From: Escherichia coli
Lineage (GTDB): Bacteria; Pseudomonadota; Gammaproteobacteria; Enterobacterales; Enterobacteriaceae
Strand: one strand, 5' to 3'
Length of the DNA stretch: 35,354 nt
NCBI RefSeq assembly: GCF_003334355.1
Contig: NZ_QOWP01000035.1
Shown piece by piece: positions 12,309 through 17,064 of this stretch; within the stretch, counting starts at the first letter, position 1; each line of letters opens with the position of its first letter. The notes under the pieces are model-generated. The model was not told where the DNA came from. It was given only the letters and a program-made list of their open reading frames with translations, and did not search any database. The translations under genes were made by a program, and so were the position numbers.

Positions 12309-12920
12309 CTACTTACGTTGATCATCTACCGTGACGCCTTGCGGCGGGGTGAAGGTAAATTTCGCTGCATCCACAGCCCCATTTTGCTGGGATTTCAGTT
12401 GATAACTGCTGCGCTGATCGTCCTGCTCCACCGCGCTAAACTGATGGATTGTGCCATCACGTCCCACGTTAATGGTGAACTGCTTCAGATTGCCATTGCT
12501 GGCTTTCGGCGTCAGGACAAAGTCATCGCCATTCTGTTTGATATTGTACTGCTGCCAGTCGCTGGACTGGTTGCGGGCAATCAGCATAAACGGCGTATTA
12601 CCGGTGGCATCTTTCAGCCAGGTTGCCGTAGCTTGCTCAACGAACGGGTTATAGAACCACAGTGTTTTACCGTCAGAAACCAGAATGCTTTCATCAGGTT
12701 GTGTCATATGCCAGTTGAATAAGTTTGGACGTTTCACCCACAGATCGCCCTGACCTTCCTGCACCGCCGCGCCGCTACCATCAGTCACTTTTTGTGTGAA
12801 GCTGGCGTGGAAGCTGCTGACTTTATCCAGGCGGCTTTTCAGATCGCTTGCGGCATCAGCCCAAACGCTGCTTGCTACTAAGCTTGAGAGTAATGCACAG
12901 GTGATGGCAATTTTTTTCAT
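12309..12920 (-). CDS. lolA: Outer-membrane lipoprotein carrier protein, 203 aa
   Basis: ORF track 12309..12923 trimmed to the second ATG (12920), which has better SD spacing; signal peptide [21 protein letters not shown]. Confidence 0.9.
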
Positions 12921-12941
12921 CATTATTCCTCAAATTACGTC

Positions 12942-12957
12942 ACTCCCGATCGGGAGT
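12942..12957. promoter_or_regulatory. Perfect 16-bp palindrome ACTCCCGATCGGGAGT upstream of lolA
   Basis: Perfectly self-complementary 16-mer with a central GATC, 22 bp upstream of the lolA start, immediately 5' of the SD; candidate operator or 5'-UTR hairpin. Confidence 0.35.
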
Positions 12958-13031
12958 TCCCTCTACTCTCTATTCCAGGCTAATAATCAGCTTGAGGAAA
13001 GAAGAAAATACTGAATTTTCAGTTGATAGAG

Positions 13032-13066
13032 TGCCGGATGCGACGCTACCGCGCCTTATCCGGCAA
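13032..13066. repeat. REP (repetitive extragenic palindromic) element
   Basis: tgccggatgcgacgctaccgcgccttatccggcaat matches the E. coli REP consensus (GCCGGATGCG...CGCCTTATCCGGC); between the ftsK stop and lolA promoter. Confidence 0.7.
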
Positions 13067-13074
13067 TGCATTAA

Positions 13075-16000
13075 TTAGTCAAACGGCGGTGGGGCCAGCA
13101 CTTCACGATTACCGTTGTGCCCCTGTTCGCTGACAATCCCCTGCGCTTCCATCTGTTCGATAATACGCGCTGCACGGTTATAACCAATGCGGAACTGACG
13201 CTGTACGCCAGAAATTGACGCTTTGCGTTTTTCAGTGACAAACTGCACCGCCTGATCGAACAACGGATCCAGTTCTTCAGCGCCATCGAAACCACCCGCA
13301 CCACCTTCGCTTTCGCTGTCGGAGGTGATGCCATCAACATACTGTGGGCGACCACGCGCTTTCCAGTCCTGCACCACGGCATGAACTTCCTGATCGCGAA
13401 CAAAAGCACCATGGACACGTACCGGCAACGTGGAGTTCGGCCCAGAGTAGAGCATATCCCCCATACCCAGCAGTGATTCCGCGCCAGCCTGATCAAGAAT
13501 GGTACGTGAGTCAATCTTACTGGATACGGTAAAGGCGATACGGGTCGGAATATTCGCTTTAATCAGACCAGTAATAACATCAACCGATGGACGCTGAGTT
13601 GCCAGTACGAGGTGGATACCCGCGGCACGGGCTTTTTGCGCCAGACGTGCTATCAGCTCTTCCACTTTTTTACCTACCGTCATCATCAGGTCGGCAAATT
13701 CGTCAACCAACACCACAATGTATGGTTCTTTTTTCAGCACCGGATGCTGGGCATCCATACTGTCACCCGGCTTCCAGTACGGGTCTGGAATCGGACGCAT
13801 CATGCGATCGGCTTCAGCAATTTTTTCGTTATAACCCGCCAGATTACGCACACCCAGCGCAGACATCAGTTTATACCGACGCTCCATCTCGTTAACACAC
13901 CAGCGCAGCGCGTTGGCGGCATCTTTCATATCAGTAACGACTTCCGTTAACAGGTGCGGAATGCCTTCATACACCGAAAGCTCCAGCATTTTCGGGTCGA
14001 TCATGATGAAACGCACATCTTCTGGCTGTGCTTTATAAAGCATGCTCAGGATCATCGCGTTCACACCGACAGATTTACCGGAACCGGTAGTCCCCGCAAC
14101 CAACAAGTGCGGCATTTTCGCCAGATCGGCAACCACCGGCTCACCGGCGATATCTTTACCCAGCACCACGGTTAATGGCGACGGATTATCGCGGAATTTG
14201 GCGTTATCCAAAACTTCGCGCAGATAAACGGTTTGTCGTTTTTTATTTGGTAACTCCAGACCTACATAGGGTTTGCCAGGAATAACTTCAACGACACGCA
14301 CCGCCACCGTCGAAAGTGAACGGGCAAGGTCCCGTGACAAGTTAGAAATGCGCGCCGCTTTTACGCCAGGAGCCAGGTTAAGTTCAAAGCGAGTGATAAC
14401 CGGCCCCGGAGAGTAATTGACGACATCGGCTTTAATACGGAAATCAGCCAGACGCGCTTCCACCAGACGAGCCATTTGTTCAAGCGCAAAGGTATCTACC
14501 GGCTCCACTTCGCTCGGCGGCGGTGTCAGCAAATCCAGAGAAGGCAGCGGCGTCGTCGGTTTATGCAACGGACGGCTGTCGCCATTACGCATCAACAGCG
14601 GATGAAGCAGGGTATCCTGCGGTTGTGGCGCAACTGGCTGTTGTGGCTGCTGATACTGCTGCTGCGGCGCAACCGGTTGTTGCGGCTGCTGATATTGCTG
14701 CTGTGGCGCAACCGGTTGTTGCGGCTGCTGATATTGTGGCTGCGGCGCAACCGGCTGTTGTGGCTGCTGATACTGCGGCTGCGGCGGAACTGGTTGTTGC
14801 GGCTGCTGATATTGCTGCTGCGGTGCAACCGGTTGTTGCGGCTGCTGTACAGGTTCAACAATTGGCGTAAACAACGGTTCGTGTGGACCATCATCCAGCA
14901 ACGCTTTCATTGGCGAAAATTCAAAATCATCCAGCGAGAACGGATTCGCCCCAGCCGGTTGTTCGCCGGAATAACGTTGTTGTTGAGTTTGCGCAAACTG
15001 ACGAGCCAGTTCAGCCTCTGCCGCAGCATCTGCATCTTCTGCGTTTACGGGCACATCATGTTGATACTGTTCGCCATAGCGTTGCTGCTGTGTCTGGGCG
15101 AACTGACGTGCCAGTTCATCCTGCTGCATCGCATCGATTTCATCATCGTTGTACTGATCGCCAGAATCGTACTGATTGCGCTGGGCTTCACGGGCTTTTT
15201 CTTCCGCCGCACGCTGTGAGGGCAGCTTAATACCGTAAGACGCCAGTTCACGACGAGTTGGCACGCGGATACGTTTCGGTCGTGGCAACTGCGGACCAAT
15301 CCCCTCTTTGACCTGAGGACGCGGTCCACCGCTATTTGCCAGACTGAAGACTGGCGCGGCAACGGTTGCGGCAGCCCCCGTCGCCAGTGTCGCTTTTTTC
15401 ACGCCAGATGCCAGCGGGGAAACAGCGGCAGCGGCTTCTACTGGAGGTACTGCTGCAACAGAAGGTGCTTTCAGCGAAGATTTGATCGGTTCTGGTTCTT
15501 TAACCGGTTCTGGAATCGGTTGATACCAGGCCGCAAGTTGTTCACGTTCACGGGCTCGCTTCTCTTCAACTTCTTCAAAGTAGTAAAGCGGCGGACGCGC
15601 GGGTTTTGTCTCTTCTACAACGGGTTCAGGCTCCACAACAGGCTGCTGTTCAACGGGTTGCGGCTGTTGGTACAACGGCTCCTGAGCGGCTGGCTGCTGA
15701 TAAGTTTGCTCAGTCTGGTATGTAGACTGTGGAGCAAAAGTGGATTGCTGCTCTTCGGCTTGCCAGGCGTTACCTGCCACCGGTTGTTCTGGCGCAGGGG
15801 CATAATACGGCTGTTGCGCAGGTTGTTCAGCTGCAGGTGCATAATACGGCTGCTGCGGCTGTACTGGTTGTTGCAGCGGCTCATTATATTGCACTGCAGG
15901 CTGCGCATATTGTGACTGCTGTGGGTAACCTTCCGGTGCAGGAGCAATAACCGGCTCTCCCGTTTGTGGACCCGGTACAGGCTGCCAGGCTACTGTAGGT

Positions 16001-17064
16001 TGCGCAGGTGGAACATCAACAGAGGCAACAGGCGGCGTCTGAGTCACAGGTTCAACCGGCGCAGCCCAGCTTTGTGTCGCCGTGGTAGCAGCAGCTGCTA
16101 CAGCGACAGGTTCGGTAATTGGCGCACCGTTTAATAATGGATCGTATTCGTCATATTCTGGCTGCGTTGCACGATTGCCCGAAAATAGGACGTCGTCCGG
16201 GTCGGCAGCCACACCGCGTGCAGTGTAGGTAATCTCTTCGTCATCATCCATCCGCTTACCGGAGAACAACGCAGCGTCTGTTTGCCGCCCCATCGGATTA
16301 ATGAATTTTTCCGCCAACCGTTTACGACGCGCTAGCGCGCCGCGAAGAATACGGGCACGGCGTGATTCATGCTGTTTGCCGTGATTTTCATCTTCATACT
16401 CTTCGTCGTCTTCATACTCATCTTCATCGACCCAGGTATCATCGCGACGGGTACGATTACTGGCGAAGGTGAGAATGTTTAAAATCCAGCCGCCGAGTTT
16501 TTCAGCAATGGTCACCCATGACCAACCGGTGAACAACGTCAGGCCCGCTGCCCAAACGCAGAGCAGCGCAATAGTTCCCCCGCTACTGTGTAGCAGTGGT
16601 TGTAGCGTAGTGCTTAGTAAGCTGCCAATGACGCCACCGGAGGCAAAATACCAGATATCGTCAGCGTTGATTGCCGCCAGACCACAGGAGGTAAGGATGA
16701 GCGCCAAAACGCCAATGATGCGTAGCGAAACGGCAAAATAATCAATGTATTCGTCGCTGGACTGATGACGCCAGGCAAACCAACAACCGCCGACAATAAT
16801 GACGGGAATGGTGTAAGCCATCACGCCAAAAATAAAGAACAGCGTATCTGCCAACCACGCACCGGGCATCCCACCTAAATTATGGATAGGTTCATGCCAG
16901 GCCGTTTGCGACCAGCTGGGGTCCGAAGGGTTAAAGCTTAGTAAGGCAGCCATCAACCAGACGGCAAACAGGACAATAAGGATCAGCAACGCCTCCAGAA
17001 GGCGGCGGCCGCTACTTAACTTTGTCAATGTGACTTCTTTGTCTTCAGTGTATTCCTGGCTCAA
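13075..17064 (-). CDS. ftsK: DNA translocase FtsK, 1329 aa
   Basis: ORF track; N-terminal membrane domain, long Pro/Gln-rich linker, C-terminal motor with Walker A GTTGSGKS; start codon TTG (plus caa at 17062-17064) with GGAGA SD. Confidence 0.95.
14617..14847 (-). repeat. In-frame 39-bp tandem repeat (about 5.5 copies) in the ftsK linker
   Basis: Plus-strand unit ggcgcaaccggttgttgcggctgctgatattgctgctgt repeats with few substitutions (copies starting 14627, 14666, 14705, 14744, 14783); encodes [10 protein letters not shown](P/Q)QY on the minus strand. Confidence 0.9.

Follow-up and report, generated by a model that had tools for sequence, protein, structure and literature searches.

The perfect 16-bp palindrome ACTCCCGATCGGGAGT upstream of lolA is tentatively read here as the DNA image of a short conserved stem-loop that lies close to the 5' end of lolA mRNA and influences in cis what becomes of the transcript, a reading that is held at somewhat less than even confidence. 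The palindrome lies at positions 12942-12957 of the window, the whole stretch of 35,354 nucleotides that was analysed, on the minus strand like lolA, and is the sole copy there. It cannot be extended, the flanking bases c12941 and t12958 being unpaired. Its end is 18 nt from the first lolA ATG (12923) and 21 nt from the second (12920), within the 151-bp spacer that separates lolA (ORF list, 12309-12923, minus strand) from ftsK (13075-17064, minus strand, stop codon at 13077-13075). The genes ftsK, lolA, rarA, and serS form an E. coli-type run on the minus strand. At the lolA start (12918-12923, minus strand), two in-frame ATG codons follow each other directly, as seen in the sequence and the MG1655 annotation. 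In older annotation lolA begins at the first (615 nt) and in the current MG1655 annotation at the second (612 nt), which alone is present in most other genera. The sequence-only reading had reported a perfect 16-bp palindrome with a central GATC upstream of lolA, and both its sequence and its position were verified.

The perfection of the palindrome is of limited weight. In 200 dinucleotide-preserving shuffles of the whole 35-kb window, perfect palindromes of at least 16 bp occurred at a mean of 0.7 per shuffled window and at least once in 50% of the shuffles, compared with one in the real window. Since perfect 16-mers are common at this scale, perfection alone is no evidence of function. The earlier judgement that such a 16-mer is unlikely by chance is therefore correct for a 150-bp region chosen beforehand but does not hold for 35 kb that were scanned. 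More informative is the composition of the element. By comparison with relatives, 12 of the 16 bases belong to a conserved 6-bp stem, while the central four form a free loop, and the pattern CTCCC-N3-7-GGGAG occurs once in the window. The self-complementary GATC loop is, as judged from this comparison, an Escherichia-specific accident, a 1-in-16 coincidence in one genus.

Placement of the element on the transcript follows from a published transcription start. Cappable-seq of E. coli K-12 (Ettwiller 2016, PMC4782308) reports a start at U00096.2 936551 on the + strand, with a score of 4.17, which equals NC_000913.3 937328. Conversion through lolA (U00096.2 936592-937206 = window 12923-12309) places it at an A at 12964, minus strand. 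The leader of lolA accordingly measures 41 nt up to the first ATG or 44 nt up to the annotated one, and the palindrome spans +8 to +23 of the mRNA. The question raised earlier of whether the palindrome is transcribed is thus answered positively, the start lying 7 nt upstream of it. Support for this start rests on the one data set together with a conserved -10 element. The TSS table of Kim 2012 for E. coli has none in the ftsK-lolA spacer, and no Klebsiella entry was found; the Term-seq supplements of Adams 2021 have no entry near the palindrome. Two further Cappable-seq starts, U00096.2 936182, which Kim 2012 lists as well, and 936358, fall in the 3' part of ftsK at window positions 13333 and 13157, minus strand. 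Since these starts are inside ftsK, lolA may also be read from ftsK-internal promoters, and longer read-through RNAs that bear the hairpin may exist.

The promoter has a conserved layout in the alignment, which consists of the block GAAAATTCAGTATTTTCTTCT, about 23 nt, the -10 hexamer, 11-15 nt and the hairpin. The -10 hexamer TGGAAT (12972-12977, minus strand) lies 7 nt upstream of the start in a positionally conserved column. TGGAAT is the form in Escherichia, Citrobacter, and Salmonella, with TGAAAT in some Citrobacter, and the same column reads TAGAGT, TACAGT, TACATT, CAGAAT, or TGAAAT in other genera. A simple sigma-70 scan did not call the TGGAAT hexamer because it has no A at position 2. 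Better hexamers occur elsewhere, which suggests that the E. coli lolA promoter may be weak and activator-dependent. The block GAAAATTCAGTATTTTCTTCT itself (13000-13020, minus strand) is nearly invariant, being conserved in about 25 genera, and GAAAAT-N5-ATTTTC forms an inverted repeat within it. Tao in 2012 reportedly described a direct control of lolA by Rcs. A candidate RcsB box, TCAGTATTTTCTTC (13001-13014, minus strand), lies within the block with its centre at about -43.5 from the start, and matches 9 of 14 positions of the RcsAB-box consensus TaAGaatatTCctA. RcsB boxes sit just upstream of -35 (review PMC5651002). The nearly invariant block at 13000-13020 is probably the site of Rcs induction of lolA. 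Other regulatory signals were considered by eye against consensus sequences, and no fit was seen for CRP half-sites, for CpxR or sigma-54 sites, or for a promoter of sigma-E (GGAACT-N16-...); GGAAC is not conserved.

At the RNA level, the segment +1 to +27 folds as ACUCCC-GAUC-GGGAGU with -11.7 kcal/mol, a structure that accounts for 91% of the ensemble. The hairpin at +8 to +23 (12942-12957, minus strand) comprises a 5' arm ACUCCC (12957-12952), a loop GAUC (12951-12948) and a 3' arm GGGAGU (12947-12942). Its 6-bp stem is also predicted when the full leader or a read-through RNA of 140 nt is folded. It is preceded by the 5' tail AGAGGGA, 7 unpaired purine-rich nucleotides in E. coli and by homology 4-9 in other genera. 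For +1 to +33 of E. coli, the fold z-score against shuffles is -2.55; it is -2.06 in Pantoea and weak, from 0 to -1.8, in other genera.

The Shine-Dalgarno sequence GAGGAA (12926-12931, minus strand) lies 10 nt 3' of the hairpin and is unpaired with it. In the MFE and centroid folds, neither this sequence nor the AUG falls within the hairpin, and the consensus fold consists of the hairpin alone. When the arms were mutated in silico, the unpaired probability of the Shine-Dalgarno sequence was 0.41-0.46 in three of four mutants versus 0.46 in the wild type, the exception being a G-rich 5'-arm mutant with 0.92. A hairpin that occludes the ribosome-binding site, or an RNA thermometer, was therefore rejected, the Shine-Dalgarno sequence and AUG being unpaired with the stem and the accessibility nearly unchanged in three of the four arm mutants. 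An insulator, in which the stem would shield the ribosome-binding site from CUCCC or GGGAG, was likewise rejected, since the arm mutants leave accessibility unaltered in silico. The suggestion of a 5'-UTR hairpin that modulates translation can thus be divided. Its identity as a leader hairpin is borne out by the transcription start, the 6-bp fold and the conserved stem, whereas the modulation of translation is not, the Shine-Dalgarno sequence and AUG being unpaired with the hairpin. As a separate observation, UUCCUCAA (12992-12999, minus strand, in the -35 region) is an exact 8-nt complement of the Shine-Dalgarno region UUGAGGAA (12926-12933). It lies upstream of the start and is therefore present only on ftsK read-through RNAs. 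Silencing by UUCCUCAA as an anti-Shine-Dalgarno element on such RNAs was considered and rejected, because the pairing is unused in the MFE and centroid folds of the 140-nt RNA and the complement is limited to the Escherichia/Citrobacter/Salmonella clade.

Conservation was followed in 86 loci, comprising 80 Enterobacteriaceae loci from species-representative genomes with LolA and 6 farther relatives obtained through protein matches. About 60 of these 86 Enterobacterales species retain the arms CUCCC(G)/(C)GGGAG, among them Escherichia, Salmonella, Citrobacter, Klebsiella, Raoultella, Kosakonia, and Phytobacter as well as Pluralibacter, Yokenella, Kluyvera, Pseudocitrobacter, Franconibacter, and Siccibacter. 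In Pantoea, the corresponding position holds a related hairpin, UCCCUG-CCGU-CAGGGA, whose stem includes an additional U-A pair. Free variation is seen between the arms, with forms that include GATC, GGTC, GTTC, CATC, CGTC, CGTT, GCGTC, GTGTC, GTATC, and ACATC, and mean column identity in the spacer is 54% with both arms near-invariant. The gap between CTCCC and GGGAG is 3 nt in two loci (L012 and L073), 4 nt in Escherichia, Citrobacter, and Salmonella, and 5 nt in Klebsiella, Kosakonia, and Pluralibacter. Conservation in Enterobacteriaceae, which had been named as a check, is therefore found for the hairpin arms and not for the perfect palindrome or its GATC.

These data bear directly on the proposal that the inverted repeat is a DNA operator, at which a dimeric transcription factor bound over +8 to +23 would block or modulate the lolA promoter. 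The half-sites CTCCC and GGGAG are both conserved and their position could serve as a roadblock. However, the half-site spacing is 3, 4, or 5 bp according to genus around a hypervariable centre, and a dimer site of fixed geometry would not tolerate such variation, which leaves the operator suggested by the sequence-only reading unsupported. Moreover, the changes seen in the arms are wobble-compatible on one strand only, which is relevant to RNA and not to DNA, and RcsB, the only regulator of lolA in the literature found, has its likely box upstream of -35. An operator is thus highly improbable.

The distribution of GATC argues in the same manner on the second DNA-level proposal, namely that the central GATC renders lolA expression sensitive to Dam methylation. 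Alleles were surveyed in 5,426 complete E. coli genomes, in all 5,426 of which the palindrome segment lies between ftsK and lolA. Four 40-nt alleles account for 5,408 genomes (99.7%): GATC in 3,889, GATT in 469, GGTC in 259, and G-CUCCC-GGTC in 791, the last being GGTC together with an A-to-G change at the first palindrome base. In favour of the proposal, a GATC lies at +14 to +17 in the window strain and in 72% of the complete genomes. Against this, it is missing in 1,537 of the 5,426 genomes (28%), where it is replaced by GGTC, GATT, GTTC, and others, so those genomes have neither a GATC nor a perfect palindrome. Among the carriers of GATT are ATCC 11775, which is the type strain, and a derivative of EPEC E2348/69. 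Among the genera examined, GATC between the arms is confined to Escherichia; in the spacer of 151 bp there is one GATC, with no partner protein site. A Dam-sensitive switch, as had been suggested, is scarcely credible. Variable arm spacing and the lost GATC, taken together, exclude the readings at the level of DNA. The common E. coli alleles alter only the loop or change the outer A-U to G.U, and the stem is intact in all of them.

The mode of change in the arms was considered with 48 distinct sequences in a gapless alignment that was hand-anchored on the stem structure. The five core pairs are 98% paired in these sequences. Over all stem cells, pairing is 87.8% versus 36-60% with slid partners, and pairing as high as that observed arises in 71 of 500 column shuffles. 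Covariation is thus not significant, since the arms hardly vary. Double changes are present in two pairs only, the outer pair (AU/GU/GC) and a C-G pair that becomes U-A in L036. Where only one partner of a core pair has changed, in Kluyvera and Salmonella, a C of the 5' arm has become U, which yields U.G in the sense RNA and would yield A.C in the antisense. In addition, the sense strand folds better than the antisense in 54 of the 80 loci. These features provide mild evidence that the selected form may be the lolA-sense RNA and not the DNA. RNAalifold on a MAFFT alignment recovered 3 pairs, few in number because differences in loop length shift the 5' arm.

The hairpin is not kept everywhere. 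In the Enterobacter/Leclercia clade, the stem is down to about 3 bp, approximately CCC/GGG; in Enterobacter the 3' half CGGGA..GACG is retained and the 5' arm has decayed. In the two Trabulsiella loci (L033 and L037), exactly the hairpin has been deleted about 30-45 nt upstream of lolA, as the comparison of Trabulsiella GCAGAAG|CAUGACGUA with Kluyvera ACAGAAG-CUCUCCUGGCGGGAG-CAUGAGGCUA demonstrates, and this clean deletion implies that the hairpin is dispensable in that genus. Comparison of upstream sequences found the hairpin absent from Mixta, Buttiauxella, and L067. Hairpins of unrelated sequence that might replace it at the corresponding position in Buttiauxella, Cedecea, and L067 were rejected as no better than shuffles (p = 0.09, 0.21, and 0.65, respectively). 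Other structures were observed in the spacers of relatives. The Enterobacter clade, whose +8 hairpin has decayed, has a different G+C-rich hairpin, CCTGCCTTCGGGCAGG, some 55-70 nt before lolA (L041, L047, L053, and others); it lies between the -10 hexamer and the conserved block upstream. In the Erwiniaceae (L091 Erwinia, L092 Mixta, and L093 Pantoea), a clear intrinsic terminator, GGGCCGG...CCGGCCC followed by a T-rich run, lies after ftsK, about 130-190 nt upstream of lolA; the Enterobacteriaceae spacer is without it.

Such losses have to be weighed in favour of a neutral explanation, according to which the hairpin is conserved without a function of its own, because a short and functionally crowded promoter-leader region has diverged little and is locally constrained in mutation, and is slowly eroding. 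It is degenerate in Enterobacter, deleted in Trabulsiella and absent in Mixta and Buttiauxella; covariation is not significant; fold z-scores are weak outside E. coli and Pantoea; no effect on accessibility of the ribosome-binding site is predicted; and palindromes of this kind are expected by chance at the scale of the window. This explanation is nevertheless rather unlikely, because with spacer identity at 54% the arms are near-invariant around 3-5 nt that change freely, the four common E. coli alleles spare the stem, and the Pantoea hairpin carries an added U-A pair.

The reading that we prefer, a leader stem-loop acting in cis, would proceed as follows. Transcription from the spacer promoter would start at 12964 and present the hairpin at +8 to +23 of the 44-nt leader; selection would act on the pairing of the arms and leave the loop free; and the hairpin, clear of the ribosome-binding site, would serve as a modest protective or structuring element that slightly raises the lifetime or yield of lolA mRNA. 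An effect on mRNA stability is our best guess. Several features argue against it, namely the 7 unpaired 5' nucleotides, the rules of RNase E action, and the loss or erosion of the hairpin in several genera. With respect to RNase E, scanning enzyme bypasses bare or orthogonal stem-loops, and bound protein is the effective obstacle (PMC9943677). A model in which the stem-loop by itself obstructs scanning RNase E was consequently rejected, orthogonal stem-loops being bypassed (PMC9943677).

The sequence beside the stem introduces a further element. The stretch GACGUA (12936-12941, minus strand) lies directly 3' of the hairpin and is conserved. With the last two stem bases it forms GUGACGYA (12936-12943, minus strand), which is conserved to the same degree as the stem and survives in the Enterobacter clade despite the decay of the 5' arm. 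Retention of the 3' half in Enterobacter hints that there may be a sequence-specific role beyond the hairpin. For GUGACGYA, no consistent alternative fold, uORF, or recognisable protein site was found. Two specific candidates were rejected. The alternative hairpin GCGUC[GGGAGU]GACGC is perfect in Klebsiella, Pluralibacter, and Yokenella and mismatched in E. coli, Citrobacter, and Phytobacter. The mini-ORF GUG-ACG-UAA has no usable Shine-Dalgarno spacing, and its frame and length are unconserved.

The stem-loop and GUGACGYA might together form an mRNA site for a trans-acting RNA-binding protein or sRNA that tunes LolA synthesis or blocks RNase E, a possibility that we regard as quite unlikely. 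The conservation of GUGACGYA alongside the stem, which is unexplained by the fold, and the persistence of CGGGA..GACG beyond the 5' arm speak for such a site, as does the presence of GGA motifs in the leader, the 3' arm, and the Shine-Dalgarno sequence; a bound protein, unlike a bare stem-loop, would also block RNase E effectively (PMC9943677). However, the literature searched shows no link of lolA to an sRNA, CsrA, or RIL-seq. CsrA prefers a GGA in a loop, whereas that of the 3' arm is part of the stem, and the fold that would expose GGA, GCGUC[GGGAGU]GACGC, is the one mismatched in E. coli, Citrobacter, and Phytobacter. It is distinctly unlikely that a factor bound to the stem-loop and GUGACGYA sets LolA synthesis post-transcriptionally, as a second layer over Rcs-driven transcription.

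A role during transcription was also considered, whereby the nascent hairpin would stabilise a promoter-proximal pause of RNA polymerase around +33/+34, immediately ahead of the synthesis of the Shine-Dalgarno sequence. Set against the elemental pause consensus G-10 Y-1 G+1 and his-pause geometry, the stem ends at +23, 11 nt before G+34, in E. coli, Citrobacter, and Salmonella, and G+24, U+33, and G+34 fit the consensus. A three-position consensus arises by chance about once per 32 positions, however; Klebsiella has A at +34, Kosakonia is 1 nt shorter, and a pause would bring no obvious benefit. This role is very unlikely, and the cis-acting leader stem-loop is retained as the preferred reading.

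LolA is essential and its supply is coupled through Rcs to envelope stress, so any cis element in the 44-nt leader is a candidate knob on outer-membrane lipoprotein traffic. Should the hairpin affect the fate of lolA mRNA, it would simply join the ordinary leader hairpins; binding of a factor would reveal that the Lol pathway is controlled post-transcriptionally. The analysis removes the Dam-switch and operator readings and places the element on the transcript, with the conserved GUGACGYA as the small puzzle that remains. The earlier statement that no assigned function is known holds in that no Rfam family and no paper were found: Rfam gave no match on 12942-12957 even at E <= 10, and the literature search found no paper on a lolA leader hairpin. 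The nearest Rfam match is naRNA4, below its gathering score, on the neighbouring REP (13029-13064). The element is best filed as an ordinary conserved leader hairpin, absent from Rfam and from the literature found.

Comparison with known systems clarifies this classification. Like palindromic dimer operators, the element has two conserved inverted half-sites of 5-6 bp, near-invariant in the 48 sequences; unlike them, its half-site spacing varies by 2 bp and its centre is free. It shares with the Dam switches pap and agn43 a GATC near a promoter within an inverted repeat, and differs in that this GATC is a lone one in transcribed DNA, unconserved in E. coli and with no competing protein known. 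Intrinsic terminators and attenuators also possess a G+C-rich leader stem-loop, whereas the lolA stem is followed by GACGUAAUUU, with no U-tract and no alternative antiterminator fold. A terminator scan over 12700-13300 returned 0 sites on either strand, and an intrinsic terminator was rejected on the lack of a U-tract after the stem together with this negative scan. REP/BIME elements are likewise palindromic and intergenic, whereas the lolA hairpin is single-copy and without a REP consensus; a 40-nt palindrome-centred query had a median of one location across the E. coli genomes, and a REP/BIME repeat was rejected on the single copy per genome and the lack of consensus. A REP-type palindrome is present in the same spacer, GCCGGATAAGGCGCGGTAGCGTCGCATCCGGC (13033-13064, minus strand), 76 nt upstream of the hairpin and 10 nt after the ftsK stop. 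In most other genera it is replaced by TTGCAAAG-N-TGGGTAAATAAG, and in Salmonella by a different REP-like palindrome. Finally, of the known kinds, the element comes closest in its working to the 5'-terminal stabilising stem-loops of the ompA type, small 5'-UTR structures of enterobacterial mRNAs that, as reported by Emory, Bouvet and Belasco in 1992, need about 4 or fewer unpaired 5' nucleotides. The lolA stem differs from them in beginning at +8 after 7 unpaired nucleotides, against that limit of about 4, and resembles them in being a small hairpin, rich in G+C, that lies close to the 5' terminus of an envelope-protein mRNA, clear of the ribosome-binding site and conserved in enterobacteria.
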